In this document: positions 83-59,256 of the stretch, piece after piece
Layout: every line of letters starts with the position of its first letter
How positions within the stretch are numbered: position 1 is the first letter of the stretch
The notes under the pieces: generated by a model
Seen by the model: the letters and a program-made list of their open reading frames with translations, nothing else
What the model was told of the DNA's origin: nothing
Databases searched by the model: none
Translations under genes and position numbers: made by a program
Assembly: GCA_035994985.1 (NCBI GenBank)
Contig: DASYKZ010000011.1
Span: forward strand, 1 to 61,226
DNA from: Minisyncoccota bacterium
Lineage (GTDB): Bacteria > Patescibacteriota > Minisyncoccia > Phycocordibacterales > UBA9973
Direction: 5' to 3'
Length of the DNA: 61,226 nucleotides

Positions 83-514
83 TTGATTTTTCAAGTATTT
101 TTGTATATTTTGACCAACACAATTTGTGACTTAACCCCCCACTTCTACTCGAAGACGGGTGGGTGGTATTCCGACCAGAAGTTTGCTCGCGAAGACAAAA
201 CGTCGTTCGGATGGCTCGCCATCAAGAAGACACCAGTCTCGAACTCGACCAGCAAAAACTGGAACGAGCAGAACAAGCTTCTGTCCGCGCTCGAGAAGGT
301 GCCGAACGCCGCCGAGATGAGTTGGTTCATCACGACCTATTTCGAGGTCCGTGGTATCCGACTCTTCGAAAGCATCTACGTTCGGACGTCCAGTCTCGAC
401 TCGGACGGTCGCCGCGTCAGCGTCGGCAGCTTCGATGCCGGGGGTCTCGACGTCGGCCACTGGGACGGCGACAGCCGCCATGACAGCATCGGCTTGTCGG
501 CTGCCAGGAAGTGA
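83..514 (+). CDS. DGR variable (target) protein, small, VR at the C-terminus
   Basis: The open frame runs from the stop at 47-49 to TGA 512-514. The only early in-frame start candidates are TTG at 83, 101 and 110. The N-terminal stretch IFQVFLYILTNTIC is hydrophobic. The last ~40 codons are the VR, and the C-terminal ending ...IGLSAARK resembles C-type-lectin-fold DGR targets. The start codon is uncertain. Confidence 0.6.
   Translation: MIFQVFLYILTNTICDLTPHFYSKTGGWYSDQKFAREDKTSFGWLAIKKTPVSNSTSKNWNEQNKLLSALEKVPNAAEMSWFITTYFEVRGIRLFESIYVRTSSLDSDGRRVSVGSFDAGGLDVGHWDGDSRHDSIGLSAARK
394..514 (+). repeat. DGR variable region (VR) including IMH-like 3' end
   Basis: 394-508 aligns without gaps to 864-978 (offset 470). 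There are 15 mismatches, all at positions where the 864-978 copy has A. The last 22 nt before 508 are identical between copies. After that the copies diverge at non-A positions. Confidence 0.9.
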
Positions 515-552
515 TTCTTGATCCCTTGAGGGCTTGTCCCTCTTGAATACTT

Positions 553-592
553 GAGCCTCCGCGAAATTTTTTTGCGGAGGCTCTTTCTTTTT
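553..592 (+). terminator. GC-rich hairpin plus T-run downstream of the VR
   Basis: gagcctccgc (553-562) pairs with gcggaggctc (574-583) and is followed by tttcttttt. This could be an intrinsic terminator, a DGR homing-associated hairpin, or both. Confidence 0.6.
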
Positions 593-863
593 CATAAAAA
601 TGAAGCTAATATGTTTTTATCTTGCTAATGTAGCTTGGATCACGGTTCAAGCTCGCGAGATATCTCACCTTGAGATATCGCCAGAGTGCCAGTAGTCCAC
701 GGATTACGGCAGAGTGCGATTAAGGATAGAGAGAACTTCTTGCTCGTTTCTTGTGGAGGTGTTTGAAAAAACTGCTCCCAAATAAAATTCAGAGATGGGA
801 GGATATAGACCTACAAAGGTGGTAAACCTCGATTCTCGGTGACACGGATGGGAACGAGCAATA

Positions 864-985
864 TCTCGACTCGGACGGTAACCGCGTCAACGTCGGCAAC
901 TTCGATGCCAAGGGTCTCAACGTCAACAACTGGAACGACGACAACCGCAATGACAACATCGGCTTGTCGGCTGCCAGGCAGTCAT
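864..985 (+). repeat. DGR template repeat (TR), non-coding
   Basis: This is the invariant partner of the VR. Read in the VR frame it carries nine AAC codons plus AAG and AAT at the sites that differ in the VR. Confidence 0.9.
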
Positions 986-998
986 AGCTCTATCCTAG

Positions 999-1027
999 GA
1001 AACTCCCACCATAAAAGTGGGAGTTTC
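999..1027. other. 11-bp-stem hairpin immediately after TR, abutting the avd stop codon
   Basis: gaaactcccac (999-1009) pairs with gtgggagtttc (1017-1027), loop cataaaa. There is no clear U-run on either strand. Confidence 0.5.
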
Positions 1028-1029
1028 TG

Positions 1030-1425
1030 TTAACGCTCTCTCGTGGATTTTATCCAGCCTCCAAGCATTCTCCCTATTTCGTCGAGGTTTGCTTCGATGA
1101 TGATGTATTTCTTAGCATCAATCGCTTTTACATCCTTCATGAGGCGAACACAAACTCGCAGGAAATTAAGTTTGACGCTCGTCTTCTCCAAGGTCGGTAA
1201 TTTATCCGACTTAGACTGCTGACTTGCAAAAAGTATGCCCTCCAGCACCTCGATTAACAGGCTTTCGCATTTTTGCCAGAGCGTGTATCGATCTTGCTTG
1301 GGTACGGAAAGGCGGAGAGTATAAAACTCCTTGTATAGATCGTAGGATTTTTTGAAGATAGGTATGTCTAGGTCATTCATATATGAAAACTTATAAAGAT
1401 TTATATTGGTCGATAATTTCTCCAC
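1030..1425 (-). CDS. avd: Avd-like accessory variability determinant (four-helix-bundle protein)
   Basis: The size is 116-131 aa. The C-terminal DEIGRMLGGWIKSTRER resembles the Bordetella phage bAvd ending (EVGRILGSWIARVNRK), and VPKQDRYTLW resembles the bAvd IPRKHG region. The start is either GTG 1425 or ATG 1380. Confidence 0.75.
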   Translation of the reverse strand: MEKLSTNINLYKFSYMNDLDIPIFKKSYDLYKEFYTLRLSVPKQDRYTLWQKCESLLIEVLEGILFASQQSKSDKLPTLEKTSVKLNFLRVCVRLMKDVKAIDAKKYIIIEANLDEIGRMLGGWIKSTRER

Positions 1426-2432
1426 AAACGCTCTTCCGTGCGTGGGAGATATTCAAGTCTGACAAACGGAACAAGCCCGATGTCGCGGAATTTGAGCTGA
1501 ATCTTGAACAAAACATTTTTGACTTGTACAGAGATCTGAAAAATGAAACATACAAGCACGGGCCATACCGGGGATTTTGGATTCACGACCCAAAGCTCCG
1601 ACGAATTCACAAGGCTACCGTGCGGGATAGAGTGCTTCATCATGCCGTGTTCTACGTTTTGAACCGTATATTCGAGCCGACCTTCATCAACGATTCGTAT
1701 TCCTGCCGAATTGGCAAAGGAACGCACAAGGGCATGGAAAAAGTTGCCGACATGATTCGAGCAGTAAGCAAAAATCATACTCATCCGTGCTACGCCTTGA
1801 AATGCGATGTGAGAAAATTCTTTGATTCCGTGGATCACGACACTCTTCTTGAGATTCTCAGCACGAAAATCAAAGACGAAAAAATCCGCAATCTTTTGCG
1901 TGAGATAATCGAGAGCTTTGAGGCAAGTCGCCCGAATCTTTTTGAGCGCAGGGGCGTGCCGATCGGCAACCTGACCTCGCAAGTGTTCGCGAATATCTAC
2001 ATGAATGAATTCGATCAGTTTATTAAGCATGATTTGAAAGTGAAAAATTATGCACGGTACACCGACGATTTCGTGATCATTTCCGATGACAAGGCATATC
2101 TCGAAGGACTACTTGAACCGATAGGAAAATTCCTGAAATCAAAGCTCCATCTCGATCTGCACCCGAAGAAGATAACCTTAAAGAAACACATACAGGGAGT
2201 AGATTTTCTCGGATATGTGATACTTCCACATCACATCAAGCTCCGCACAAAAACGAAGCGCAAGATTCCCAAGAAGATTCGTCAGAGCGTGGCACTCTAC
2301 AAGAGCGGGCAGATAAACGAGGTGGCGATGAAATCCTCCCTCGCTTCATACTTAGGCGTATTGTCCCATGCCAATACATATGAGATGACCGAGAGCGTGA
2401 GGAATATGTTTTGGTTCTGGTTGAATGAATAA
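1383..2432 (+). CDS. DGR-type reverse transcriptase
   Basis: Contains the IGNLTSQ motif ((I/L)GxxxSQ, typical of DGR RTs) and the YTDD catalytic motif (ARYTDDFVII), with upstream RT motifs (CDVRKFFDSVDH). Confidence 0.9.
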   Translation: MKTYKDLYWSIISPQTLFRAWEIFKSDKRNKPDVAEFELNLEQNIFDLYRDLKNETYKHGPYRGFWIHDPKLRRIHKATVRDRVLHHAVFYVLNRIFEPTFINDSYSCRIGKGTHKGMEKVADMIRAVSKNHTHPCYALKCDVRKFFDSVDHDTLLEILSTKIKDEKIRNLLREIIESFEASRPNLFERRGVPIGNLTSQVFANIYMNEFDQFIKHDLKVKNYARYTDDFVIISDDKAYLEGLLEPIGKFLKSKLHLDLHPKKITLKKHIQGVDFLGYVILPHHIKLRTKTKRKIPKKIRQSVALYKSGQINEVAMKSSLASYLGVLSHANTYEMTESVRNMFWFWLNE

Positions 2433-2581: not shown

Positions 2582-4024
2582 CTACTTTACTAGCAACTCG
2601 ATACTCTCAATATTTATCTGATCCATAAAATTCACAACAATAGGATCAATCTTGATGTCCTCACGTTCGATAGGTTGAGTCAGATATAAACCAGCTAGAG
2701 ATGTGCATCGGCTAAGTGCTACATAAGTTTGGCCGTGAGCAAACGCTCCGCCTGCCATATTTACGACTACGGAATTATAGGTCTTACCTTGGGATTTATG
2801 AATCGTGAAAGCCCATGCAAGTCGCAAAGGAAACTGTGTGAATGAACTCAACACTTCTTCTTCAATTGTTCGATTTTCAGTATCGTAGTAATAGCGAATC
2901 TTTTTCCAAGTCTGCTGAGGAATTGAGTAAACTATTTCGCCATTGATGCGCACTTTGATTTCGGTCTGCGACAAAGACTCTACGATACCGACAGTACCGT
3001 TAACCCATCTCTTTTCGGGATCATTCTTGAGAAGCATTACCTGAGCACCTTTCTTTAGCCTTAGAAACTCCTCGGCTGGGAATGCGCTACGTTCCAGATT
3101 TCCTGCTACATCGGCTCGGTATGTATAGAGAGTTCCATCCAACTGAGCCAAGCGATGATTATTTATCTGATCAACGACAGCGTTTCGTGTGGCCAAAGTT
3201 ATAACCCCCTCGGTTGGTATCGGACTTACACATCTCTCGTTTAAGGCAAAGAGAATATCGTCGTTCAACTGATTTTTTCTTACAGCATTCAAGATATTCC
3301 TGAAACCTTCGTCATCTTGCTGTCTGAAATTATGGGTCAGTTCAAAAGTGTGAAGTTTTGTTTTCTGCCACACCTCGGCGTTGAAGAAATAAGGACCACC
3401 ATGGTTATGGGCAAAATACTGATGGAGAGCATCATCAGTAACAACTGGCGGCAACTGATATGGATCGCCGAACATGACAATCTGAACGCCTCCAAATGGA
3501 ATTTCATTACCTCGAGCTTGTCGTAGTAGCACATCGATAGCACCCATCATATCCGTTCGCACCATAGATACTTCATCGAGAACAATCATATCGACATGTC
3601 TCATGAGAGTCGCAACTCGATTACTTACTTTTAGTTGGGTGACATCAATAAAGCCAGTCGGAAGCTCAAATAAAGAATGCAGGGTCTGACCGCCGACATT
3701 CAAAGCGGCCACGCCAGTGAAAGCACCGACAACTAATCGCTTCTGTGATTTGTATTTCAAATACTGGAGCAAGACAGATTTTCCCGTCCCTGCTTTGCCA
3801 GTGATAAAGAAGTGATCTTTGCTACTCTCGATTTTACTGAAAAGTTTTTCTTGTTCGTCGCTGAGTTTAACGTTTTCTATGAAGATTAGATCCTCGTTCA
3901 GTTTCTTATTAACGACTGGTGGCCTGCGATAGCCAGAATGGCTGGATTGGTTTTTAGAACCTCCACCCTTAAAAACTTGGTAGAGAATATAGATGACTAT
4001 AATGGTAAGAATTAGCCACCCCAT
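2582..4024 (-). CDS. Pif1/RecD-family SF1B helicase with N-terminal hydrophobic segment
   Basis: Walker A is GKAGTGKS, Walker B is LDEVSMV, and the C-terminal motif is TIHKSQGKTY. Residues 2-17 (GWLILTIIVIYILYQV) look like a TM anchor. Confidence 0.75.
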   Translation of the reverse strand: MGWLILTIIVIYILYQVFKGGGSKNQSSHSGYRRPPVVNKKLNEDLIFIENVKLSDEQEKLFSKIESSKDHFFITGKAGTGKSVLLQYLKYKSQKRLVVGAFTGVAALNVGGQTLHSLFELPTGFIDVTQLKVSNRVATLMRHVDMIVLDEVSMVRTDMMGAIDVLLRQARGNEIPFGGVQIVMFGDPYQLPPVVTDDALHQYFAHNHGGPYFFNAEVWQKTKLHTFELTHNFRQQDDEGFRNILNAVRKNQLNDDILFALNERCVSPIPTEGVITLATRNAVVDQINNHRLAQLDGTLYTYRADVAGNLERSAFPAEEFLRLKKGAQVMLLKNDPEKRWVNGTVGIVESLSQTEIKVRINGEIVYSIPQQTWKKIRYYYDTENRTIEEEVLSSFTQFPLRLAWAFTIHKSQGKTYNSVVVNMAGGAFAHGQTYVALSRCTSLAGLYLTQPIEREDIKIDPIVVNFMDQINIESIELLVK

Positions 4025-4027
4025 AAA

Positions 4028-4561
4028 TTAGTCGGTTTTAATCTTATTAATTCCTGATACATCAAGAGAACCCTTAAAAAGAATGTGTGGCACTTTGTGA
4101 AAAAGTAACGGATTTTTATCCTGTGCGAACATTTCTTTATAGTATTCTTTTGTCCCCTCAGGCATTGTTGAATATTGAGCAATATCATCAGGATCGTACT
4201 TTGCGAAATTATCCTCTTTGAGCTTGTCCGCCATGTTGCTGTGCTTATACAAATACACGATCGTATTTTCAGAGTTCAAAAGGTGTGGATCAACTTCAAA
4301 AAATTCTAGGTCGAATGATTTTGTGCGACCCGAATCAAACAATGCTTTCTTTATCAGTGATGGATGAACGGCGGAAAAGTGTAAAACGTCATTCCACAGG
4401 CAATCAAGAACTGGGATTCGCTGTTCCATAATATGTTCGCGGCCGACATATTTACTCGCCTCTTTTTCGTAGAGGTCAGCATGACTATCTTTAAGAGTGT
4501 TGAGAGGGTACAAAACATTTCCTCGCATATCTTTTGGAACCCAGTGGTAGAGATAATTCAT
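4028..4561 (-). CDS. Conserved hypothetical protein
   Basis: The ORF is tightly coupled to its neighbours. Its ATG is 1 nt after the upstream TAA, and its stop is 3 nt before the helicase ATG. I recognise no catalytic motif. Confidence 0.5.
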   Translation of the reverse strand: MNYLYHWVPKDMRGNVLYPLNTLKDSHADLYEKEASKYVGREHIMEQRIPVLDCLWNDVLHFSAVHPSLIKKALFDSGRTKSFDLEFFEVDPHLLNSENTIVYLYKHSNMADKLKEDNFAKYDPDDIAQYSTMPEGTKEYYKEMFAQDKNPLLFHKVPHILFKGSLDVSGINKIKTD

Positions 4562-4562
4562 A

Positions 4563-5174
4563 TTATTTTTTTCGAGCAATTACGTGAAAAACATGCCAAT
4601 GCTTCATATCGCCTTTGGCAGTAGTGTCATCTTTCTCTTCTTCCTTGAAAGAAATGATCTCTAAATCCTTAAGCAGATTTTCTACTTGCTGTTTAGTATG
4701 GAAGATCATTTTTGGATTTACCGACCATTCGTCACGTTCTCCAAAAAACTGACCGCAGAATATACCTCCCGTTTTGAGAGAACTCTTTATTTTCGCAAAA
4801 ACAGCATCAAAGTGAGTGGAATCAGTAAATGGCAGTGCATACATTGCAGTAGCGATATCGTATTCATTTTCTGGAAAATCAAATTCTTCAAATCCAGTAG
4901 TGAAGGTGTGAAGCTTGTCGCTTTGAATATTTTTAGACTCTTGTTCCATAAGCGGACTTTTATCGATCGCTGTGACATCAAAGTCTTGCTCAAGAAGATA
5001 CCTTGTATCGTTGAGCGCACCACCGCCAATATCAATTGCCTTGTCTTTGTGAACAACGTATTCAAGCGCCTTTACCAATAATGGGCGTGGCGGTTTTGAT
5101 TTAGTAGCTGTGTAATATTGTGACCAGTCTTTTTCTGCCATATTTTGACATTTTAGCATTTTTTGATGCTTCAT
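4563..5174 (-). CDS. Class I SAM-dependent methyltransferase (small-molecule/TehB-like type)
   Basis: SAM-binding motif I is present: AIDIGGGALNDTRYLLEQDFDVTAIDKSP. The size is about 200 aa. Confidence 0.7.
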   Translation of the reverse strand: MKHQKMLKCQNMAEKDWSQYYTATKSKPPRPLLVKALEYVVHKDKAIDIGGGALNDTRYLLEQDFDVTAIDKSPLMEQESKNIQSDKLHTFTTGFEEFDFPENEYDIATAMYALPFTDSTHFDAVFAKIKSSLKTGGIFCGQFFGERDEWSVNPKMIFHTKQQVENLLKDLEIISFKEEEKDDTTAKGDMKHWHVFHVIARKK

Positions 5175-7732: not shown

Positions 7733-9073
7733 TTGCGTCATCAATGTAGCTGTATGACATATATAACAACAGCGCCATTAGGGCATGCGGCCAAAGTAGC
7801 AAGCCCCGTAAGGCTTTTATACTGCCTTTACGCAAGAAAATCGACAGAACAGGAGGATAAACAGGTGCTTTCCATCGACTCCCAGATCAAGGAAATGGAG
7901 AAGATGGCGGCGGCTGATAACCTCGAAATAGTGGTCATGAAGAAGGAATCTCACTCGGCTAAGGAAGCCGGGCAACGTCCAGTCTTCAATGAGATCGTGG
8001 AGGAACTGAAACAAGGAAAATACAACGGCATATTAACGTGGGCACCTGATCGTATTGCGAGAAACGCAGGTGACCTCGGCAGAATCGTAGACTTGATGGA
8101 CCAGAAGAAATTGATTGAGATACGAACCTACGGCCAGAAGTTCATGAACACGCCGAACGACAAGTTCATGCTGATGATTCTCGGATCACAGGCGAAACTT
8201 GAGAATGACAACAAGGTGATCAACGTAAAGCGAGGATTGAGGACAAGAGCGGCCATGGGACTTCGACCATCAATGGCTCCGACAGGATATCTCAACAGCA
8301 AAAACAAAGACGAGAAATGCCAAGTGATCGTAGACGCCAAAAGAGCGCCAGTGATAAAACAAATGTTCGAGAAAGTGGCGAACGAGAATTACTCGGGCAG
8401 AAAGGTATTTAAATGGCTCAAGGAAATAGAATTCAAAAACAAGAATGGAAAGTATGTAACGCTGGGCAACATTTATAGAATGCTCCGAATGACCTTCTAC
8501 TACGGAGTGTTTGAATATCCCGAAGGTAGTGGCGAGTGGTTTACAGGAAAGCATATACCCATAATTAGCCAATCATTGTTCGAGGCGGTGCAAGAAAAAA
8601 TTAAAGTTGAGAAAAAGAAAGCATACGGACGAGAGTTCGCATTTACGAGAATGCTCCACTGTGCCTACTGCGAGTCAGGGATAACGGCAGAAGAAAAGAT
8701 TAAGGAACTGAAAGACGGCGGATCGAATGCCCATGTGTACTACAGATGCACGAAAGTGAAGAATCGAGAGTGTCCGAATGAGTCAGTCAAAGAAAGTATC
8801 CTGATAGATGAGATGCTACCGATTATCGACAAGATGAGCTTGGATAAAAGTGAGCTAAAACACAAGCTACAAGAAGAAGTGGCACGGTATGCACTCTTCC
8901 AGACAGGAGTGCTTGGAGTAGACCTGAAGCAATCAAAGAAACATAAAGACATCAGTATCAAAGTATTTGCAAAGCACATGCTCGTCCATGGGACGATGCT
9001 TCAAAAACGAGAGGTGCTCTCCTGCATCAAGAGCAGGATACTACTGAAGGACAAGAAGCTGACGATGGAATAA
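7733..9073 (+). CDS. Large serine recombinase
   Basis: The N-terminal resolvase domain has YCLYARKS (catalytic Ser) and PDRIARN. There is a recombinase domain and a Cys-rich zinc ribbon (CAYCES...YYRC...RECP). An alternative start is at ATG 7754. Confidence 0.85.
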   Translation: MRHQCSCMTYITTAPLGHAAKVASPVRLLYCLYARKSTEQEDKQVLSIDSQIKEMEKMAAADNLEIVVMKKESHSAKEAGQRPVFNEIVEELKQGKYNGILTWAPDRIARNAGDLGRIVDLMDQKKLIEIRTYGQKFMNTPNDKFMLMILGSQAKLENDNKVINVKRGLRTRAAMGLRPSMAPTGYLNSKNKDEKCQVIVDAKRAPVIKQMFEKVANENYSGRKVFKWLKEIEFKNKNGKYVTLGNIYRMLRMTFYYGVFEYPEGSGEWFTGKHIPIISQSLFEAVQEKIKVEKKKAYGREFAFTRMLHCAYCESGITAEEKIKELKDGGSNAHVYYRCTKVKNRECPNESVKESILIDEMLPIIDKMSLDKSELKHKLQEEVARYALFQTGVLGVDLKQSKKHKDISIKVFAKHMLVHGTMLQKREVLSCIKSRILLKDKKLTME

Positions 9074-9125: not shown

Positions 9126-10499
9126 ATGGATGACTCTACGGTAAAAAAAGAATTACCTCCTGTCCTTAGCTATTGCCTCTATGCTAGAAAATCGAGCGAA
9201 GACGAAGAACGACAGGCTTTGTCTATCGAATCTCAGATAAGTGAGATGAATAAACTTGCCGAACGGGATCATCTCTCTGTGGTGACCGTAAAAACTGAAG
9301 CTCATTCAGCGAAGAATTCTGGCGAACGTGAAGTGTTTAACAAAATGATCGACGAGATAAAGGCTGGAAAATATAATGCGATTCTAACGTGGCATCCAGA
9401 TAGGCTCAGCAGAAATGCGGGCGATCTCGGTAGATTGATTGACCTGATGGACAGTAAACAGCTCCTAGAAATAAAGACATATAATCAAAACTTTTCTAAC
9501 TCACCTAACGAGAAATTCTTGCTGATGATCCTTGGGTCGCAGGCAAAACTTGAAAATGATACTAAAGGTATAAATGTGAAAAGAGGTCTGAGAACACTCG
9601 TCGAAAAAGGATTGTGGCCAGGAGTCGCTCCTTTGGGATATACGAATGTTGGAGAGAAAGGAAATCGAGGCATTGTGAAGATAGATCCGATACGCGCCCA
9701 TATAGTCCAAATGATGTTTGAAAAAGCAGCCGAAGGATGGAGTCAACATCATATACGGGATTGGCTCACCGATGAATTGGATTTTAGATCACCTAACGGC
9801 AAACACGTTGCGTTAAGTGGCGTACAACTAGCACTCACGAGAACCTTTTATTACGGCATGTTTGAGTATCCCAAGAAAAGTGGCAACTGGTACCACGGCG
9901 TACACCAACCACTCATTACCAAGGAGCTTTTTGAAAAAGTTCGGGAAGAAATGAAAAAGAAAAGACGAGCGACACGGATTTACAAAAAAGACTTCGCATA
10001 TACGCACTTAATCAAATGTGGCCTATGCGGTTCAAGTGTCACCGCAGAAGAAAAATTCAAAGCTTTGAAAGACGGAACTATCGCTCGCTATGTCTATTAC
10101 GGCTGTTCGAGGACGCAAGATCACCATTGTCCTATGCACTATATCCGAGAGGAAGATCTCATAAAATCACTCTGTGAAATAGTCGATGAGTTATCGATCA
10201 ATGAGCTTGGGGTGCGAGGACAGATGGATTTGGATGTAGACAGAATGTACCGTTTTCATCGGGATGTCTTAGGTGATCCAGGAGGTTTTGAAAGCAAGGA
10301 ATTGGGAGATATTGATACTAAAAAGTATATGAAGTTTCTACTGAAGGATGGCAACATTCACGAACAACGTCATGTGTTGTCGAACCTCAAGAGCAAGCTT
10401 ATTTTGAAAGACGGAAAGATATCTGTTGATAAAACAGAATCAGATGAATTATTAAAAGACGTGCCGCCTGTTAGTCAGCCGATTTCAGTACAACTATAA
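9126..10499 (+). CDS. Large serine recombinase (paralog of 7733-9073)
   Basis: Contains YCLYARKS, PDRLSRN and a zinc ribbon (CGLCGS...YYGC...HHCP). It is collinear with, and clearly similar to, the upstream gene. Confidence 0.85.
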   Translation: MDDSTVKKELPPVLSYCLYARKSSEDEERQALSIESQISEMNKLAERDHLSVVTVKTEAHSAKNSGEREVFNKMIDEIKAGKYNAILTWHPDRLSRNAGDLGRLIDLMDSKQLLEIKTYNQNFSNSPNEKFLLMILGSQAKLENDTKGINVKRGLRTLVEKGLWPGVAPLGYTNVGEKGNRGIVKIDPIRAHIVQMMFEKAAEGWSQHHIRDWLTDELDFRSPNGKHVALSGVQLALTRTFYYGMFEYPKKSGNWYHGVHQPLITKELFEKVREEMKKKRRATRIYKKDFAYTHLIKCGLCGSSVTAEEKFKALKDGTIARYVYYGCSRTQDHHCPMHYIREEDLIKSLCEIVDELSINELGVRGQMDLDVDRMYRFHRDVLGDPGGFESKELGDIDTKKYMKFLLKDGNIHEQRHVLSNLKSKLILKDGKISVDKTESDELLKDVPPVSQPISVQL

Positions 10500-10578
10500 T
10501 TTTTCTGGCAAAACGGGAGCTAAATTTTGAGACCTGAAAAAGGGTCAAAATATAGGGCCTCCGCGTCTGCCTTGTTTG

Positions 10579-10651
10579 TGCGCCCGGTAGGAATCGAACC
10601 TACGACCATCTCCTTAAAAGGGAGCTGCTCTACCGACTGAGCTACGGGCGC
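10579..10651 (-). tRNA. tRNA-Lys (anticodon UUU)
   Basis: A manual cloverleaf fits: acceptor gcgcccg/cgggcgc, anticodon loop cttttaa, T-arm gtagg-ttcgatt-cctac. No CCA is encoded. Confidence 0.9.
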
Positions 10652-21008: not shown

Positions 21009-22400
21009 TTAGAACTTCAATTTCAGAAAACGGTGCTTACCTATTTTATATACCGTCCCTAGAGCAAGAGCATCTATATCTTTAATCTTTTCATTCGTGT
21101 CCATGTCGGTTATAGCCCCTTCGGTTACCAGCCTCCTAAACTCAGTTTTAGAAGTGACTATTTTTTCATGAAGTAAAACGTCCACAAGCTTCGTATCTAC
21201 TTTGACTTGTATTTCAAGCACATCGTCCGGCACGCCTCCTTTGGCAAAAGTTTTTTCAAAATTCTCTTCGGCTTCTTTTGCTTTTGCTTCGCCATGGTAA
21301 ATAGAAACGATTTGGCGGGCCAAGCTCATTTTTATATCTTTGGGGTTGGCACTATTCTCAGTGAGCTTTTTACGGATATCGGCTACTTCAGACAGCGGAG
21401 TAAACGTACAGAGCTCAAAGTAATTCATAATAGATGTGTCTGGGATAGACATTACCTTGCCGTACATGTCGCTTGGTTCGTCGGTAATGCCGATATAATT
21501 GTCCAAGCTTTTAGACATCTTTTCCTTGCCGTCGGTGCCCTCTATGATTTTAACCGCCATGACAGCCTGCTCAGGTTGTTTGTACATTTTCATCACGTCA
21601 CGGCCCATAAGCATATTAAAGGTCTGGTCTGTGCCGCCAATTTCAAGGTCGCAAGCGCCATACACCTTGTGGAGTATATGTGAGTCCAATCCTTGAAGAA
21701 CAGGGTACAGCATTTCATTCATATAAAGTTCCTCTCCTTTGTTTATGCGCTCTTTGAACATGTCGCGGGCTATCAGCCTCGAATGGGTAATGTTTCGGAG
21801 GGTTCTTAAGACATAAGAAAAGGAAACGCTGTAAATCTGCCGATTTTTCAGGTCTATCTTCTGCATTCTGGAATTTTCGAGAAGTATGGCCTTACCGGGA
21901 AATGAATTAGGGTCCAAGGGATACACTTTTTTGGTATTGCCTTCCATTATTTCAATATTAGTGGAGGAATCCGGTCCGGGGATGACATCTGAGACATCGG
22001 TAAACCAGTCGGAATTTTTAATCCAAGAAAATACTTTCGAGTCTTCCTGTAAAATTTTGCCGACCTGAGCCAAATATGTTTTCATGTTGGCTTGGATTTC
22101 AGCCAATTGTATTTCGGGGCGGATTTTATTTTTTCCGGTTGGATCTCCTATCTGTCCGGTATAATCTCCAACCAAAAATACCACCTTGCAACCAAGGTCC
22201 TGAAACTGGCGCAGTTTGCGCAATACCACGGCGTGGCCGATATGGATATCAGGGCGGGTCGGGTCGATACCGAACTTGATTACAATTTTTTCAGGGTTGT
22301 TTTCCAGCTTCCTGCGAAAAGCTCCGTCAGGGTCGATAAATTCCCCTACGGCGCGAGTCAATATATCATCTATTCTTTGTTTGCTTTGCTTGTCCGGCAT
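21009..22400 (-). CDS. tyrS: Tyrosyl-tRNA synthetase
   Basis: The HIGH motif is DIHIGHAV and the KMSKS motif is KMSKSLDN. There is a C-terminal S4-like domain. Confidence 0.85.
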   Translation of the reverse strand: MPDKQSKQRIDDILTRAVGEFIDPDGAFRRKLENNPEKIVIKFGIDPTRPDIHIGHAVVLRKLRQFQDLGCKVVFLVGDYTGQIGDPTGKNKIRPEIQLAEIQANMKTYLAQVGKILQEDSKVFSWIKNSDWFTDVSDVIPGPDSSTNIEIMEGNTKKVYPLDPNSFPGKAILLENSRMQKIDLKNRQIYSVSFSYVLRTLRNITHSRLIARDMFKERINKGEELYMNEMLYPVLQGLDSHILHKVYGACDLEIGGTDQTFNMLMGRDVMKMYKQPEQAVMAVKIIEGTDGKEKMSKSLDNYIGITDEPSDMYGKVMSIPDTSIMNYFELCTFTPLSEVADIRKKLTENSANPKDIKMSLARQIVSIYHGEAKAKEAEENFEKTFAKGGVPDDVLEIQVKVDTKLVDVLLHEKIVTSKTEFRRLVTEGAITDMDTNEKIKDIDALALGTVYKIGKHRFLKLKF

Positions 22401-22491
22401 ATCCCAAGACTATCACAATAAAAGATAAATCTCAAAAAACGCCTACAGAAGAATATGGGAAATATCTAATTTTCTGCTATGATTACTATAT

Positions 22492-24693
22492 ATGAAGAAA
22501 ACAAAGGCTATCATCAAGCAAATCAAAAGAAATATAATTTTATTAAAAAATAAAATCAAGAAAAACAAGCATTTTTGGAAAAATGTCCTCCTTTTTGCGG
22601 CCGGTATTATGGTCCTCATAATCGGCATAACCGTCATCTGGCTTTCCACCCTGCAAATCCCTGATTTTCGAGCATTCCAAGAAAGAAAAATTGAAAACTC
22701 CACTAAAATATATGACCGTACCGGCAAAGTATTGCTGTATGACCTGAGCCAGGACGTAAGAAAAACAGATATTACTTTTGAAGAGATGGGAGCAAACATA
22801 AAAAATGCCACGCTTGCCATAGAAGATGCCGAATTTTACAACCATGGCGGGATACGCATTTCTTCCATTATCCGCGCAGTTTTAATAAATTTTTTCAGCA
22901 CCGGCCCTACCCAGGGCGGCTCAACCATAACCCAGCAATTGGTAAAAAATACTTTGCTGACCTCGCAAAAATCCTATACGAGAAAAATAAAAGAGTGGGT
23001 TTTGGCGATAAAGATAGACAAGGTTCTGCCGAAAGATAAAATCTTTGAATATTACCTGAATGAAAATCCGTACGGGGGGACTATATATGGTATAGAAGAA
23101 GCTAGTCAGATATATTTTAATAAAAATGCTTCAGAGCTAAGCGTAGCGGAAGCAGCATATCTGGCGGCTATTCCGCAGTCTCCGACAATTTTATCGCCTT
23201 ATGGAAAACATAAAGATAAATTAGAAGTAAGAAAAAATTTAGTATTAGGAAGAGAACTGGAACTTAAATTTATTACGGAGCGGCAATACGACCAAGCCAA
23301 AAGCGAAATTGTGGCGTTTATGCCTCAGGCAAATTCCGGCATCAAGGCACCTCACTTTGTTTTCTTTATCAAAGATTATTTGGAAGAAAAATACGGGAGT
23401 GATTTAGTAGACACAGGCGGACTCAAAGTCACCACGACGCTCGATTATGATTTACAGTCTGTAGGGGAACAAATTGTGAAAGAAGGTGCTCTCTCCAATG
23501 AAAAGAAGTATAATGCTACAAATGCTGCTCTAGTTGCTATAGACCCGAAGACAGGGCAAATCTTGACAATGATAGGCTCCCGGGACTATTTTGATAAAAA
23601 TATAGATGGAAATTTTAATGTCACCACTGCTCTTCGGCAGCCGGGCTCATCTTTCAAACCGTTTATTTACGCGACTGCCTTCAATAAGGGTTTCACTCCG
23701 AGCACAGTGCTCTTTGACCTGCCTACAGAATTCCAAACTACTTGTGACGCCTATGGCAAGGCATTGCCGGGATACAGCCAAGGCGACTGTTACATGCCTC
23801 AGGATTTTGACGGAAAATTCCGCGGCCCGATGTCGCTTCACGACGCTCTCGCCCAATCTATAAACATTCCGGCGGTAAAGCTCTTTTACTTAGTCGGCCA
23901 AAAACAGGCCGCAGACGAGGCTACAGCTATGGGTATCAGCACTCTGACTGACCCAAGCAGATACGGGCTTACACTCGTTATCGGAGGCGGAGAAGTAATG
24001 CCGCTTGATATAACTTCAGCCTACGGGGTTTTTGCAAATAACGGGGTAAAAAATCCTTATACAGGAATTTTAAAAGTAGAAGACCAAAGGGGCAATATTC
24101 TTGAAGAATATACACCAAACAGCACAGAAGTTCTGTCGAAGAATACAGCTCTTATGATTTCTGATATTTTATCAGACAACGTGGCTCGTGCGCCGACATT
24201 TGGCGCAAACTCGGCATTGAACATACCCGGCAAGGATGTAGCCACAAAAACAGGAACGACCAACAACGACAAAGATGCCTGGACAGTCGGCTATACGCCT
24301 TCTATCACAGTGGGAGTCTGGGCTGGAAACAATGATAATAAAAAAATGAAAAGCGGGGGCTCCGCTATTGCTGCACCAATCTGGAATAAGTTTATGGTTG
24401 AGGCATTGAAAAAATTTCCGGATGAAACGTTTGAAGAGCCAGACTTATATATTGACCCGCAAACTACAAAGCCGATACTACGCGGCGTGTGGCAGGGAGA
24501 TGTGCATTCAATATTATATTGGGTGGATAAAAGTGATATTACAGGCCCGCTGCCGGCAAACCCTAGCGACGACCCGCAATTTAACCACTGGGAGATACCT
24601 GTACAAAACTGGTGGGCTCAAAACAAAAATAGGTATCCGGCAACCCCGCTAGACACCCCGCAAGCCTTGCCTATTCTTGGAACTCCGCAATAA
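22492..24693 (+). CDS. Class A penicillin-binding protein (transglycosylase/transpeptidase)
   Basis: GT51 motifs are EDAEFYNHGG and GGSTITQQL. Transpeptidase motifs are SSFKP and KTGTT. There is an N-terminal TM anchor. Confidence 0.9.
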   Translation: MKKTKAIIKQIKRNIILLKNKIKKNKHFWKNVLLFAAGIMVLIIGITVIWLSTLQIPDFRAFQERKIENSTKIYDRTGKVLLYDLSQDVRKTDITFEEMGANIKNATLAIEDAEFYNHGGIRISSIIRAVLINFFSTGPTQGGSTITQQLVKNTLLTSQKSYTRKIKEWVLAIKIDKVLPKDKIFEYYLNENPYGGTIYGIEEASQIYFNKNASELSVAEAAYLAAIPQSPTILSPYGKHKDKLEVRKNLVLGRELELKFITERQYDQAKSEIVAFMPQANSGIKAPHFVFFIKDYLEEKYGSDLVDTGGLKVTTTLDYDLQSVGEQIVKEGALSNEKKYNATNAALVAIDPKTGQILTMIGSRDYFDKNIDGNFNVTTALRQPGSSFKPFIYATAFNKGFTPSTVLFDLPTEFQTTCDAYGKALPGYSQGDCYMPQDFDGKFRGPMSLHDALAQSINIPAVKLFYLVGQKQAADEATAMGISTLTDPSRYGLTLVIGGGEVMPLDITSAYGVFANNGVKNPYTGILKVEDQRGNILEEYTPNSTEVLSKNTALMISDILSDNVARAPTFGANSALNIPGKDVATKTGTTNNDKDAWTVGYTPSITVGVWAGNNDNKKMKSGGSAIAAPIWNKFMVEALKKFPDETFEEPDLYIDPQTTKPILRGVWQGDVHSILYWVDKSDITGPLPANPSDDPQFNHWEIPVQNWWAQNKNRYPATPLDTPQALPILGTPQ

Positions 24694-24970: not shown

Positions 24971-26068
24971 TTATGTGTTCATGGGCATTATAAGGTAGGT
25001 AAATGAAGTATCGGAGACAGGTGAGATTATTATTGGCTTTAATGAGCCGGCGAATTTTATTGATATACTATCGGTAGTGATAGACTGGAAGCAATCCAGA
25101 AAGTATTTGTAGTTAAACCCAAGCTGGACATCTTCCCCGGTAAGCGCGGCGTCTACATGGGTTTTATTTTCGCCGATATCATTGTTGACCGAAGAAAGCT
25201 CAAAAATCTTTTCTTTCGGCAAAACGTTCAGATTTATCTGGTTAAATTTATCAGAAAAAATATTAGCCAGTTTTAGGGTATTTAATAAATCTTGTTTGAG
25301 TATTACCGCGGCAGAGGTGGATTCTTTTGGAATAATCTGGCGATAATCAGGGAAAATTCCGTCAATTACCCTTGAGGTTAAGTAAATAGTATCAGAAGAA
25401 AAAGAAATGGAGTTTTTGTTGAAGGAAACTTTTAAGTCTCCATTTACCTCTCCAAAAATTCTTATTATTTCTGAAATATTTTTAAACGGAATAAGAATAC
25501 CGGAGATTTCTGGAAGTCCTTTTGTTTTAATTTTTTTTTCTGCCAGCCTGAAAGAATCCGTAGAAACAAAAATTAAATTGTCTTCTTTTGTATACATATA
25601 CACGCTGGAAATTTCAGGTTTTATATCTGAAATCAAAGCACTGTAATAAACTGATTTTATACCATTTATTATTTTTTTTGATTCTATTTCAAAATCAGTG
25701 CCGGAAATTTTCGGAATTGTAGGGAAATCATCATGGAGTTGGCCTTTGATTTTTATTTTACTTTTTTTTGTAGTAACTGACAGATTTCCATCTATACTTT
25801 CAATAAATATACTTTCATTCTGGGGGAAATTTGAAAAAATATTGTTTAGTATGGTTCCGGAAACAGCTACCGTACCGGCGGTGTCTATTTTAGCAGGAAT
25901 TCTAATCTCAATTCCAATACTTAGGTTAGTAGCTCTTAGTATTAATGAATTTTTATCAGTAGTAAGTAAAATAGAACTTAATATTGGTAAAGTAAGGTTT
26001 TTACCTATTACTTTTTCTGCTTTAGAAATTCCATCTCTAAGTTCTTCTATTTTACATTCTAATTTCAT
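24971..26068 (-). CDS. dnaN: DNA polymerase III beta sliding clamp
   Basis: It is 365 aa and sits after dnaA. The three-domain clamp pattern is present, and the C-terminal end ...YLIMPM is typical. Confidence 0.85.
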   Translation of the reverse strand: MKLECKIEELRDGISKAEKVIGKNLTLPILSSILLTTDKNSLILRATNLSIGIEIRIPAKIDTAGTVAVSGTILNNIFSNFPQNESIFIESIDGNLSVTTKKSKIKIKGQLHDDFPTIPKISGTDFEIESKKIINGIKSVYYSALISDIKPEISSVYMYTKEDNLIFVSTDSFRLAEKKIKTKGLPEISGILIPFKNISEIIRIFGEVNGDLKVSFNKNSISFSSDTIYLTSRVIDGIFPDYRQIIPKESTSAAVILKQDLLNTLKLANIFSDKFNQINLNVLPKEKIFELSSVNNDIGENKTHVDAALTGEDVQLGFNYKYFLDCFQSITTDSISIKFAGSLKPIIISPVSDTSFTYLIMPMNT

Positions 26069-26281
26069 ATGTTTATATCTTATATATTTAAATTATTAAT
26101 ATTATTATTCATGTTGATAAGTGGATAAATTGATTTTAATCAGATTATTATAGGTATTTTAAATAAAAATAATTTGATTTAGAACTAATAACTTTACCTG
26201 TTTAATAATTAATTTTTAATTCTTTTAAATTTATATACTTTATCCTTTTTAATCCACATAATTGTTATGTGTTATTAACAA
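26069..26281. other. Candidate oriC (AT-rich dnaA-dnaN spacer with DnaA-box-like 9-mers)
   Basis: The 213-bp spacer is very AT-rich. There are 8/9 matches to TTATCCACA at 26120-26128 (minus) and 26250-26258 (plus). Confidence 0.45.
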
Positions 26282-27637
26282 CTATTTAAACATAATCCGT
26301 ATCTGCTCTAATTCTTGTAATAATTGCGGGTCGTTTTTCAAATCCGCCTTAATTTTTAAGCAAGAATGAATGACTGTGGTGTGGTCTTTCCCGCCAAGTT
26401 TCTGTCCGATAAGTGGGTAGGATATATTGAAGTCTTCGCGGAGCAGATACATTACTACTTGTCTTGCCTTCACAATTTCCTTTTTTCTTATTTTTTCGTA
26501 AATAGAAGACTCGTCTATTTTATAATATTCACTTACTATTTTTACAACTTCTTTTATGGCGATATTTTTCTTGGGCTTCATGTTGTTTTTGAGAAGACTT
26601 TTTACTTCCGATAACGGCAGAGGGCGGTTTTTCAGCCTATATTGACAGACTATTATGTTTAGACTGCCTTCCAGTTCGCGTATATTCCCTTCTACCGCGG
26701 AGGCTATATATTCGACTATTTCAGGCTCTAGCTCAATATTCATTTCTTTTAATTTCACCTTTAAAATTGCCAAGCGGGACTCAAATTCCGGAGCAGACAC
26801 GTCTACAATCATTCCCGCTGCAAACCGTGACTTTAAGCGGTCAGCCAATTCAGGAATATAGTTCGGATGCTTGTCTGAAGAAAAAATAATTTGCTTATTA
26901 CTTTCGTAGAAAGTATTGAACGTGTGAAAAAGCTCTTCCTGGATTTTTTCCATTTTACCTATGAATTGAATATCGTCTATAATCAAGAGGTCATACTTGC
27001 GGTATTTCTCTTTAAAAGAATTTGCCTTGTTGCTCTGCAATGAATTGATAAAATCAGTAGCAAATTTTTCCAGAGTCATATAATGAACTTTTTTATTTTC
27101 ATATTTTTGTTTTATTGAGTTGCCGATAGCTTGGATAAGGTGAGTCTTGCCAAGTCCAGTCGGACCATAAACAAAAAAAGGATTGTATTTTGTTCCCGGA
27201 GAGTCTATTATCGCCTGCGCCGCTGCGTAAGCCAGCTCATTGAAAGCTCCCACAATGAAAGAGTTGAAATGATAACGCGGGTTTAAGTTATCCTCCGGAT
27301 TTATATATAAGTCCCGGAGGGGCAACTCTTTATTTACATAAGGAGTCTTGTCAATTGTATCTATTTCTTGCCTAGCAGGCTCAATTTTAGTTATTACGTA
27401 CTCTACGGCCCGCATATTTTCATGGGCATCGGCCAAAGTTTTAGTAATGAGCTTGTGATATTTGTTCATCAACCAGTCGCGGACAAATTCATTCGGCACC
27501 CGTATGTAAATTACACCCAATTCCTCCTTTAGAATAGAGGTATTTTTAAACCATGTACTGAAATTTGCCTTAGACAGATTTACCTCAATTTCAGTGAGGC
27601 AACTCTCCCATAATTGTTTTGTATCCATGTGTTCCAC
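26282..27637 (-). CDS. dnaA: Chromosomal replication initiator DnaA
   Basis: Walker A is GPTGLGKTHL, with IDDIQF and the C-terminal DNA-binding signature GGKDHTTVIHS. Confidence 0.92.
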   Translation of the reverse strand: MEHMDTKQLWESCLTEIEVNLSKANFSTWFKNTSILKEELGVIYIRVPNEFVRDWLMNKYHKLITKTLADAHENMRAVEYVITKIEPARQEIDTIDKTPYVNKELPLRDLYINPEDNLNPRYHFNSFIVGAFNELAYAAAQAIIDSPGTKYNPFFVYGPTGLGKTHLIQAIGNSIKQKYENKKVHYMTLEKFATDFINSLQSNKANSFKEKYRKYDLLIIDDIQFIGKMEKIQEELFHTFNTFYESNKQIIFSSDKHPNYIPELADRLKSRFAAGMIVDVSAPEFESRLAILKVKLKEMNIELEPEIVEYIASAVEGNIRELEGSLNIIVCQYRLKNRPLPLSEVKSLLKNNMKPKKNIAIKEVVKIVSEYYKIDESSIYEKIRKKEIVKARQVVMYLLREDFNISYPLIGQKLGGKDHTTVIHSCLKIKADLKNDPQLLQELEQIRIMFK

Positions 27638-35230: not shown

Positions 35231-35861
35231 GCTTTATCTTGCCTTCCACTTCTCCTGGATTGAAAACTTTATAAAATACTTCCACCACTTCTTCGGTGCC
35301 GAGTCTGGCGGATTTTATGCCGCAGCGTGAAAGCCCCTGCTGTATCACTCCCACTCTCTGTTCAAGCTGGGACTTTTTTTCTTCAAAGTCTTCCTGTTTT
35401 ATAGCGGTCCTTTCTTCCCGGCTTTGCCGTTTAAAGAACCTGCCAAAAGTTCCGGAATCCGATTTCAGCGCAGTATTGCTGTAAGGCACGACAATAAAAA
35501 AAGTTTTTGTCATTATATTTACTGATTCTGTGAAGCTCCGGATGAATTCTATGTACTCCCTTGTTTGTATTTTTAAGAGCGGCTCATTCTGTACCTTGAT
35601 TCTATTTTCCAAAAGGAGAAGATAGGGGCGGATATCGAGCCTTCTCGACTGCACTGATATTTGGATGGGAAAATCCAATGTATTTAGAAAATTTTGAAAT
35701 TGGAGTATGGTTGCCCTTTGCTCGTCGTCTGATTTTAAAGAAAGGTTTACCGAATTGGCGAGGACAATAGCCCGCAGCCCGCCATCTTTGAGCATGATGG
35801 TCCCGTCCCGTACTTCTTTGATGGGCACAAATTCTTGAGTTGCTTTTGCGTTTAATGCCAT
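35220..35861 (-). CDS. Stand-alone protein resembling the VirB4 N-terminal domain
   Basis: The FVPIKEVRDGTIMLKDGGLRAIVLANSVNLSLKSDDEQ pattern is typical of VirB4/TraC N-termini. It overlaps the VirB4 start by 11 nt. Confidence 0.45.
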   Translation of the reverse strand: MALNAKATQEFVPIKEVRDGTIMLKDGGLRAIVLANSVNLSLKSDDEQRATILQFQNFLNTLDFPIQISVQSRRLDIRPYLLLLENRIKVQNEPLLKIQTREYIEFIRSFTESVNIMTKTFFIVVPYSNTALKSDSGTFGRFFKRQSREERTAIKQEDFEEKKSQLEQRVGVIQQGLSRCGIKSARLGTEEVVEVFYKVFNPGEVEGKIKLEQ

Positions 35862-35868
35862 AATATAT

Positions 35869-36303
35869 TTATCCTTCTTTCTTTAAATCCAAAACGTCTA
35901 GGCTCCAGGCCAAGTCCCGCAATTTATTTCCGCTTAGCCGCAATCCGTTGCTTGAAAACGTATTCATTTTATTCTCTCCGTTTGCCATCCCCTCTATGGT
36001 ATTTGTCTTCCCTCCGGTTTTTATTTGGCGTCTTTTCCATACATAAAGCTTGCTTTGGAAGCCATATTTAAAACCTGCTTCCAGCATTTCTATAAAGGGT
36101 TTGTTGTTCGGCCGGTAAAAAGTAAGCATCCCGGCAAAACCCCCTACAATTAATATAGGTATGGCTCCCCAGATGAGCCCGAGCAGTTTGTAAAACACAA
36201 AGCATATTCCGGCTCCGCCTGCCAGATAAACAAACTCCCTAAAAGTGAATGGGCCGAAAATTTTATCTTCTATTTCTAAAAATTGTGGAACTTTAAATTG
36301 CAT
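35869..36303 (-). CDS. PrgI/VirB3-like small membrane protein
   Basis: Contains FKVPQFLEIEDKIFGPFTFREF followed by two TM helices, and sits directly upstream of the VirB4 genes. Confidence 0.65.
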   Translation of the reverse strand: MQFKVPQFLEIEDKIFGPFTFREFVYLAGGAGICFVFYKLLGLIWGAIPILIVGGFAGMLTFYRPNNKPFIEMLEAGFKYGFQSKLYVWKRRQIKTGGKTNTIEGMANGENKMNTFSSNGLRLSGNKLRDLAWSLDVLDLKKEG

Positions 36304-36328
36304 AATTCATTACGTTAAGCCGGTCGCC

Positions 36329-37111: not shown

Positions 37112-37127
37112 ATTTATTATTTTAGCA

Positions 37128-37625: not shown

Positions 37626-37630
37626 AGATT

Positions 37631-40018: not shown

Positions 40019-40023
40019 TTCAA

Positions 40024-59039: not shown

Positions 59040-59050
59040 TTTGGAAATTG

Positions 59051-59121
59051 TGCGGCGTAGGAGAATCGAACTCCTGTCTCATCCTTGGCAAGGACGTGTT
59101 CTACCACTAAACCAACACCGC
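59051..59121 (-). tRNA. tRNA-Gly (anticodon GCC)
   Basis: A manual cloverleaf fits: acceptor gcggtgt/acgccgc, anticodon loop ttgccaa, T-arm aggag-ttcgatt-ctcct. No CCA is encoded. Confidence 0.88.
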
Positions 59122-59217
59122 ATAATTATGTCTATTAAATTATAAAACTGAAGCAATTATAATCTTTAATTGGCTTAATTGCAATTTTGCTATTTAAAGC
59201 TGAAAAATAACCTTATT

Positions 59218-59245
59218 TTGATAATTGCTTTAAATAATGTATAAT
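59218..59245 (+). promoter_or_regulatory. Sigma70-like promoter for tRNA-Arg
   Basis: TTGATA (59218-59223), a 16-nt spacer, then TATAAT (59240-59245). The tRNA starts 11 nt downstream. Confidence 0.5.
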
Positions 59246-59256
59246 TTATATTCGTT

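Follow-up and report, generated by a model that had tools for sequence, protein, structure and literature searches.

Diversity-generating retroelements (DGRs) of the candidate phyla radiation (CPR; Patescibacteria) were reportedly surveyed for the first time by Paul and colleagues in 2017 (Nat Microbiol 2:17045). The layout TR-(avd)-RT, called B3, in which TR denotes the template repeat and RT the reverse transcriptase gene, is shared by 90% of CPR DGRs (Wu et al. 2018, PMC5758913). A 'DGR clade 2' that is restricted to Patescibacteria has also been described (Roux et al. 2021, PMC8144416), and its host range is matched by the locus reported here. We analyzed a DGR residing at positions 83 to 2,432 of contig DASYKZ010000011.1 (GenBank assembly GCA_035994985.1) from a Minisyncoccota bacterium. 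The whole stretch of 61,226 nucleotides is referred to as the window. We consider it highly probable that this locus is a complete DGR of the Patescibacteria type, arranged in the order target with variable repeat (VR), TR, avd in antisense orientation and RT, that it is situated on a phage-derived island, and that the adjacent target gene is split by a miniature inverted-repeat transposable element (MITE) of 244 bp.

Like the B3 elements of other Patescibacteria, the locus possesses an antisense avd gene between TR and RT, just one adjacent target, whose VR is C-terminal, and a patescibacterial host. It differs from them by the MITE splitting the adjacent target in the window genome, and by a structured RNA of approximately 245 nt 5' of the TR, which is not mentioned in the available literature. 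Judged by its gene order and its relatives, the cassette is an ordinary member of a well-populated Patescibacteria DGR clade with the published B3 layout. The second system suited for comparison is the DGR of the Bordetella phage BPP-1 (mtd-avd-TR-brt). Both elements show adenine-specific transfer from TR to VR with an AAC-rich template, an invariant VR end resembling an initiation of mutagenic homing (IMH) site and followed by a GC hairpin, an Avd protein of the four-helix-bundle type, and an RT that among solved structures is presumably closest to bRT. A predicted stem-loop just 3' of the TR and a predicted duplex bracketing the TR resemble those of the bRT-Avd-RNA structure. Unlike in BPP-1, however, avd of the window lies on the opposite strand and downstream of the TR, and therefore its sequence cannot supply the upstream RNA segment. 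In place of avd-derived RNA the window contains a dedicated non-coding 5' domain. Moreover, its target is no tail fibre, and its host is an island of a cellular genome instead of a free phage.

The TR (864-978, plus strand) contains 30 adenines. The VR (394-508, plus strand) covers the last 38 codons of the target, which are followed by RK and the stop codon. A previous interpretation made from the letters and open reading frames (ORFs) alone, in the following called the sequence-only reading, had reported that both copies align without gaps at an offset of 470 and display 15 mismatches, each with A in the TR. A computed alignment reproduced this exactly, including the TR positions affected (880, 881, 890, 899, 910, 911, 919, 925, 926, 928, 934, 938, 944, 949 and 956). 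Twelve of the changes were A>G and three A>C, while A>T was absent. Hence, half of the TR adenines (15/30) were substituted in the VR. Mismatches at non-A template positions were looked for and did not occur within the 115 nt, all 85 positions of this kind being identical. By our own arithmetic, the chance that 15 out of 15 mismatches fall on A, which makes up 30 of the 115 positions, is about 2e-9. In the frame of the target, the substitutions affect nine AAC codons of the TR and one codon each of AAG, AAT and GAC. The first three kinds had been listed correctly before, the GAC codon had been omitted. The variable codons are affected at positions 1 and 2 of AAC-type codons, and the VR is located at the 3' end of a protein-coding target. 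A further VR, i.e., a second copy matching the non-A positions of the TR, was found neither on the two strands of the 61-kb window nor on two contigs, L104 and L105, which share the target ORF with the window (see below).

The IMH-like 3' end of the VR (487-515, plus strand) is composed of 22 invariant nucleotides (487-508), after which the VR reads AAGTGA and the TR CAGTCA. As had been noticed before, the two copies diverge at non-A positions behind the invariant end, namely at 509/979, at 513/983 and everywhere from 516 on. Among the relatives, the ends of VR and TR co-vary locus by locus. The GC-rich hairpin at 553-583 (plus strand) was confirmed as well. It consists of a 14-bp stem and a 3-nt loop, is followed by a run of T residues, and is conserved with compensatory changes. 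The hairpin module travels with the VR and stays beside it even in L057, a related locus with an inverted target. It probably serves as the terminator of the target gene and is also a candidate for the cruciform of the DGR. At the sequence level, both an IMH/IMH* pair and a downstream GC-rich inverted repeat are thus present at the locus.

The avd gene (1030-1380, minus strand) encodes 116 amino acids (aa) and matches Pfam bAvd (E 4.9e-17). Its product scored 84.5 bits with NF033474 (DivGenRetAVD), the NCBI equivalog model of DGR Avd proteins, whose cut-off is 80. The full ORF extends from 1030 to 1425 on the minus strand, with the 116-aa version starting at ATG 1380. The RT gene (1383-2432, plus strand; 349 aa) matches Pfam RVT_1, and the motifs [LIV]GxxxSQ and YxDD of the DGR-clade RTs are present as IGNLTSQ (1962-1982) and YTDD (2058-2069). 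The Avd-like gene and the two RT motifs named in the sequence-only reading were therefore both recovered; that avd runs antisense to TR and RT had not been mentioned there. The order TR (plus), avd (minus) and RT (plus) is the same in the related loci L006 to L015. The start codons of avd and RT (1378-1385) are only 2 nt apart on opposite strands, facing away from each other, a spacing found in all close relatives. Consequently, each gene has to accommodate the promoter and the ribosome-binding region of the other. The claim of a complete DGR held true, since the locus combines adenine-specific TR/VR repeats and an IMH-like end with a hairpin, Avd and an RT of the DGR type.

By contrast, the proposal that the DGR diversifies a very small surface or ligand-binding protein could not be upheld. 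Only nucleotides 138-514 of the 143-codon ORF at 83-514 (plus strand) belong to the target gene. They encode the C-terminal 122 residues of the target together with a duplicated PHF, whereas 83-137 is read from an insertion. For the 143-aa product 72 homologues were obtained, most of which comprise 200-250 aa (span 200-260); shorter ones were mostly located on contigs of less than 2 kb or marked as partial. The named homologues originate from metagenome-assembled genomes (MAGs) of the Patescibacteria lineage, apart from one record labelled Thermodesulfobacteriota, and all of them are hypervariable in the same C-terminal columns. Homology of the window to this family begins at HFYSKTGGWY, around position 139. 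The AT-rich sequence in front of it matches nothing, and BLAST of positions 1-140 against the window and all loci did not disclose any match.

An exact-protein look-up of the 143-aa ORF revealed the same ORF on two contigs from JGI, L104 and L105. L105 begins at window position 39. L104, which stems from a different sample, matches the window without a difference along 4,544 nt and reaches 9.9 kb further to the left. On this contig the missing N-terminal half of the target exists as a 148-aa ORF (L104 9376-9822) ending with ...LDVREIQSAHF, to which WVK and a stop codon are attached. Behind the inserted element, the target resumes as in the window with ...PHFYSKTGGWY. The insertion site is thus at codon ~145 of a target gene of ~267 codons, the 145-residue N-terminal half lying upstream. 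According to our own reading of the alignments, a single frame of ~267 codons is restored upon removal of the element and one copy of the duplication, and the junction of the intact allele is ...GCCCACTTC joined directly to TACTCGAAG. An intact and expressible target gene does not exist here, as the 244-bp insertion introduces in-frame stops (WVK-stop). The 83-514 ORF is the 3' fragment of a ~267-codon gene split by a transposon and not a small protein. A distinction between 'A-type' targets adjacent to cassettes and 'B-type' stand-alone targets, with the window being chimeric or recombinant, was dropped since L104 harbors a complete, though split, B-type gene beside the cassette. The annotation of a tiny target is an artefact of a contig starting inside a transposon. 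Automated DGR finders would call a target of 134-143 aa at this site and could mis-size the target family.

The right-hand 137 nt of the insertion occupy positions 1-137 of the window, with the terminal inverted repeat ACTTAACCC at 129-137. Directly adjoining is the right copy of a 9-bp target-site duplication, CCCACTTCT (138-146), the left copy of which resides on L104, outside the window. On L104 the whole element covers 9812-10055 (244 bp, ~29% GC), and the alignment with intact relatives displayed a clean insertion. The element is bounded by perfect 9-bp terminal inverted repeats, GGGTTAAGT and ACTTAACCC, with an imperfect match out to ~25 nt. It is flanked on both sides by the 9-bp duplication, the sequence of which occurs as a single copy in the intact relatives. 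All six reading frames are closed, leaving the insert without coding capacity. Exact-match scans for the element ends gave nothing in the metagenome or viral contig collections. By a degenerate inverted-repeat search, however, the same end of ~29 nt, GGGTTAAGTAAA(A)TTTT(C)GTGTTGGTTTTT, was detected at 25 metagenome loci with different flanks, which showed a strong tendency to lie at contig ends. At one of them (L122) the end is followed by a 309-aa ORF matching Pfam Transposase_mut (48.5 bits, cut-off 21), and at another (L109) a similar protein of 317 aa with an InsA-type zinc ribbon is encoded beside it.

Since the ~29-nt end is common to loci with Transposase_mut, the insertion is assigned, by its termini, to the MITEs of the IS256/Mutator-like family. 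It shares with IS256/Mutator-derived MITEs the small size, the AT-rich and non-coding sequence, terminal inverted repeats in common with Transposase_mut-encoding elements of ~1 kb, and the 9-bp target duplication. IS256-family elements are reported to make duplications of 8-9 bp (ISfinder). In contrast to such MITEs, the insertion is present only once in the sequence available for the window genome and its perfect inverted repeat is just 9 bp long. An intron or an invertible promoter switch, which were considered for the 244-bp insert, were ruled out, since the target site is duplicated and the termini are shared with transposons. Of the three contigs, the window and L105 end inside the element. 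These breaks fit a repeat or a polymorphism and prove neither. As two out of three contigs break within the MITE, one may, more speculatively, regard it as a reversible insertion which switches the diversified gene off and on in the population.

Searches of Pfam, NCBIfam and PDB with the target, both as a single sequence and as a profile, yielded no match. We therefore turn to structural models. A full-length relative of the target (P0006; 71 sequences in the alignment) was predicted by AlphaFold2 with a pLDDT of 91.7 and a pTM of 0.84. The top PDB matches of this model were the C-terminal domains (CTDs) of Bdellovibrio Bd2740 and Legionella Lcl (probabilities 0.97 and 0.91). Superposition with the Bd2740 CTD (8oks) gave a target-normalised TM-score of 0.62 and an rmsd of 3.2 A. 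Snake-venom C-type lectins and EgtB/FGE-type domains were among the further matches and, lower down, Treponema TvpA. The modelling indicates that the target likely adopts a C-type-lectin-like fold. Like the DUF1566/C-type-lectin-like DGR proteins (Lcl CTD 8q4e, Bd2740 CTD 8oks, TvpA 2y3c), to which the model of the full-length relative is most similar, the target carries its VR at the C-terminal end of the domain. Different from them is the lack of a sequence-level match in the databases mentioned, and the target family possesses a conserved, helical N-terminal region of ~100 residues. With the same alignment, the 143-aa fragment of the window reached a pLDDT of 75.6 only, four out of five models being at ~60, and Foldseek did not find any usable match for the fragment model. 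Because the fragment alone loses both confidence and structural matches, the models suggest that the N-terminal region missing here plays a part in the fold of the target. Structure prediction of the 83-514 product, which the sequence-only reading had put forward, thus revealed no fold for the fragment itself, but CLec/DUF1566-like top matches, with weak E-values, for its full-length relative.

The RT has thousands of homologues, and no fewer than 588 relatives could be confirmed in Patescibacteria among the GTDB species genomes. Public RT relatives reached identities of up to 92-96%. Most of the 80 RT loci kept bear titles of the Patescibacteria lineage; a few are labelled 'Gammaproteobacteria' or just 'bacterium', which we take to be mislabels. 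Self-comparison disclosed an adenine-biased TR/VR pair at ~60 of the 105 loci then in hand. The TR of related loci is always located 400-550 nt upstream of RT, and the VR either ~500 nt upstream of the TR or, in inverted orientation, ~1.2 kb away. Several of these loci contain two targets. VR-bearing ORFs beside related cassettes encode 185-648 aa with the exception of L022 and L037, in which the VR is situated within ~400 nt of the locus end, and L088 (72 aa).

The window and the closest cassettes have almost the same TR, and the VRs of these cassettes differ from the TR at adenines only, A>T included. Two of these loci from different samples, L006 and L007, showed 12 differences in 3,301 nt, all of which reside in the VR. 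Between L012 and L013, 19 of 29 differences were found in the VR. Inasmuch as near-identical relatives differ mainly within their VRs, the comparison demonstrates an active DGR lineage. In the pool of 47 TR/VR pairs, 844 of the 1,440 TR adenines were substituted (G 62%, C 17%, T 21%) and 22 mismatches affected non-A positions. Given the abundance of G in this pool, the G-rich spectrum of the window, which lacks T, is typical of the family; the absence of T among the 15 changes has a P of ~0.03 under the family spectrum. The DGR machinery looks functional, and the VR appears to have been rewritten recently from the present TR. The earlier statement that the element is or recently was active is plausible in view of the perfect non-A identity and of closest relatives that differ in their VRs only. 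If so, the gene most likely diversified at present is the disrupted one.

Can the locus be explained in another way? Database names might lead one to suspect a group II intron or retron RT in place of a DGR enzyme, as the top NCBIfam match by name is the group II RT/maturase model TIGR04416 and JGI labels relatives as 'retron-type'. The score of 158 bits is, however, far below the cut-off of 300, the RT also remained far below the cut-offs of the NCBIfam retron RT models, and no group II intron or retron RNA was matched in Rfam. The best solved structure was the 328-aa RT 8ub7_A (entries 8ub7-8ube; E 6.5e-41, 144 bits), which we take to be bRT of the Bordetella phage BPP-1, whereas group II intron and retron RT structures gave E-values of ~1e-20 or worse and at most 78 bits. 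A grouping of the RT with the latter enzymes, which the sequence-only reading had named as counter-evidence, is thus disfavored by profile and structure scores alike, and together with the IGNLTSQ motif, the adjacent Avd and the adenine-specific repeats this leaves practically no room for such an origin. More weight has to be given to the assumption that the cassette is an inactive relic whose VR/TR differences are historical. The VR is the same in all three assemblies (window, L104 and L105), which possibly represent one population, the target is disrupted, and the activity of the Patescibacteria DGR clade in metagenome surveys was lower than average (Roux et al., PMC8144416). The identical VRs and the low clade activity also weigh against our own interpretation, as do the weak Foldseek E-values for the P0006 fold (0.08-0.15, albeit with consistent top matches) and the fact that a second copy of the MITE was found neither in the 61-kb window nor in the fetched flanks. 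Nevertheless, the locus has kept an intact RT, Avd, TR, IMH-like end, hairpin and structured RNA, these parts are 90-97% identical to relatives whose VRs differ between near-identical contigs, and not a single non-A mismatch has accumulated in 115 nt. We therefore judge a relic to be rather unlikely.

The two further alternatives concern the target. The ORF of 134-143 aa might by itself give rise to a functional binding protein, very small and diversified, with translation beginning at a TTG and the inserted element providing the promoter. From TTG 83 or TTG 110 onwards the ORF is indeed open up to the stop at 514, with the VR in frame and free of non-A damage; the insertion-derived residues, being hydrophobic, might imitate an anchor, and the AlphaFold2 model of the fragment keeps the same secondary-structure elements. 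Yet neither an ATG nor a Shine-Dalgarno-like sequence was seen upstream of TTG 83 or TTG 110, and a protein of this size does not agree with the lengths of the target homologues and, apart from the three exceptions mentioned, of the VR-bearing ORFs beside related cassettes. Since, in addition, the missing 145 residues were found as a separate ORF just upstream on L104, and model confidence and fold matches were lost in the fragment, a functional small protein is improbable. Even less can be said for an assembly artefact by which the AT-rich positions 1-137 were wrongly joined to the target. The window and L105 do end inside the insertion, at a place where assemblers break at repeats or polymorphisms, but L104 from a different sample spans the entire element, the element is cleanly bounded by inverted ends of 9 bp, the 9 bp duplicated beside it are single-copy in intact relatives, and its ends recur as a mobile-element terminus in other metagenomes. 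We thus consider an erroneous junction very improbable and adhere to a complete DGR whose target gene has been split by a MITE.

The region between VR and TR and the adjoining sequences revealed a structured RNA, which we regard as the most useful by-product of the analysis. The spacer of 350 nt is 97% identical to those of the closest cassettes, compared to ~90% for the RT gene. In L057 the equivalent of window positions 510-586 (flank and hairpin) resides beside the VR and that of 618-1035 beside the TR, by which the spacer is seen to be modular. The 5' domain of ~245 nt (619-861, plus strand) comprises several helices, among them those at 619-661, 664-731 and 740-861. For covariation, an alignment of 19 diverse loci was evaluated by RNAalifold and pair counts. 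Altogether, 94.9% of the cells were paired, and compensatory double changes occurred in 51 of 78 pairs. None of 500 column shuffles was as good (0/500), and slid partners were paired to 40-50%. A profile of the 5' domain (nhmmer) matched 73 sequences, including the window and three truncated copies at stand-alone targets, which only retain the first half of the domain. In cassettes, the domain always ends at the start of the TR on the RT strand, also in loci with an inverted target. It has no family in Rfam (Rfam 15), and no description of a ~245-nt domain 5' of the TR was found in the available DGR literature. In 16 of the 19 aligned loci, a hexamer TAnnnT within otherwise variable surroundings precedes the domain's first base by exactly 12 nt. 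In the window it reads TAATAT (607-612, plus strand) and is the predicted -10 box of a dedicated promoter for the TR-RNA.

On the other side of the TR, a stem-loop with a stem of ~12 bp and a 7-nt loop is located at 998-1028 (plus strand). It corresponds to helix 12 of RNAalifold, exhibits compensatory changes in six out of eight pairs and agrees with the single-sequence fold. Moreover, the single-sequence fold predicts that 988-996 (plus strand) pairs with 723-731 to form a duplex bracketing the TR. This duplex has moderate support from the alignment (80% of the cells paired compared to 40-51% for slid partners; four compensatory pairs). Helix 3 of RNAalifold (664-666/729-731) was not relied on, as it is invariant and competes with the better-supported bracketing duplex. 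For the Bordetella element, an Avd-binding stem-loop 3' of the TR and a 'cPRT stop' duplex of upstream and downstream sequences have been reported, and both features were also predicted for 207 other DGRs, with just 40 nt upstream of the TRs having been examined (Handa et al., bioRxiv 10.1101/2023.10.23.563531). By analogy, the stem-loop 998-1028 is a candidate counterpart of the Avd-binding stem-loop and the duplex 723-731/988-996 of the 'cPRT stop' duplex. It is conceivable, and we propose it tentatively and with some doubt, that in patescibacterial DGRs with antisense avd a self-contained, non-coding RNA of ~410 nt includes the TR and is transcribed from a promoter of its own. The 5' domain 619-861 would then be an undescribed scaffold of the RT-Avd ribonucleoprotein, replacing the avd-derived upstream RNA and the Sp spacer of the Bordetella phage element.

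The following course of events can be envisaged by homology with the Bordetella phage DGR. The promoter near 607-612 would drive an RNA starting at ~619, which comprises the structured 5' domain of ~245 nt, the 115-nt TR, the TR-bracketing duplex and the 3' stem-loop. Bound to this RNA, RT and Avd would produce a cDNA of the TR with nucleotides misincorporated opposite adenines. With the invariant IMH-like end and the GC hairpin downstream of it as guides, the cDNA would replace the VR at 394-508, and by this retrohoming 12 codons of the C-type-lectin-like domain would be recoded.

The window belongs to a cellular genome, as it encodes PolA, RuvB, an aminoacyl-tRNA synthetase, PBP1, UvrD, the CCA-adding enzyme, a type IV pilus ATPase and five tRNAs. 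A Candidatus Nomurabacteria MAG shows synteny with it, the amino-acid identities being 55-68%. Upstream of the split target, L104 contains genes for two N6/N4 DNA methyltransferases and the small and large terminase subunits as well as four unknown genes. A gene for a PIF1-type helicase (2582-4024, minus strand) lies downstream of RT. It is part of a minus-strand block (2582-5174) encoding in addition an unknown 183-aa protein and a methyltransferase dependent on S-adenosylmethionine (SAM); this block is not conserved beside related cassettes. Beyond the methyltransferase gene, several unknown genes precede a tandem pair of large serine recombinase genes (7733-9073, 446 aa, and 9126-10499, 457 aa), directly beside which a tRNA-Lys gene is located (10578-10651). 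The segment 7733-10651 is likely the integration end of the DGR-bearing island. Because of the terminase genes upstream and the serine recombinases with tRNA-Lys downstream, the gene content identifies the surroundings of the DGR as a phage-derived integrative island. Among the relatives, terminase genes were found upstream in L006 and L013 and a serine recombinase downstream in L012 and L015. A scan of viral contigs for the RT revealed just nine distant relatives with identities of at most 61%, and the assumption of a phage origin therefore rests on the neighboring terminase genes.

Homologous targets also occur alone in other genomes, where neither TR nor avd nor RT is present within 6 kb. 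Behind those of L001 and L004 (6001-6875 in each case), the GC hairpin is still present together with ~122 nt from the beginning of the TR-upstream RNA domain. Their VRs showed 24 differences in 135 nt as compared to ~4% elsewhere. By their sequences, the stand-alone targets resemble either what is left of former cassettes or targets that are diversified in trans. In the syntenic Nomurabacteria genome, a stand-alone homologue (L002 5709-6836) is located between the tRNA synthetase and PBP1 genes, which in the window are separated by just 92 nt (22400-22492). This target protein is ~79% identical, while the flanking housekeeping proteins show 55-68% identity. As the targets are more similar than the flanking housekeeping proteins, their sequences hint at horizontal movement of target genes.

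Some other parts of the window deserve mention. The genes dnaN and dnaA (24971-27637, minus strand) are syntenic with L002, and the window is therefore near the chromosomal replication origin. Two very large ORFs without a Pfam match (795 and 731 aa) are preceded, 2.4 kb upstream, by a gene for a TraG/VirB4-like P-loop ATPase (33344-35230). All of them are on the minus strand and extend to 42219. Possibly, the region 33344-42219 represents a module of the conjugation or secretion type. Beside the gene for the CCA-adding enzyme, four tRNA genes are clustered (Gly-GCC, Arg-TCG, Pro-TGG and Gly-TCC; 59050-60223).

The DGR itself adds little to what is known, as hundreds of close relatives exist in Patescibacteria assemblies and both its architecture and its clade have been published. 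The Patescibacteria DGR clade is, however, the most numerous and the least studied one, and with the 5' domain, the bracketing duplex, the 3' stem-loop and the -10 box at a fixed distance, the RNA elements described here provide DGR biochemists with a concrete RNA that can be tested. For the organism, an intact machinery whose sole visible target is disrupted amounts to a natural test: either the diversified protein is dispensable, or the insertion is polymorphic.

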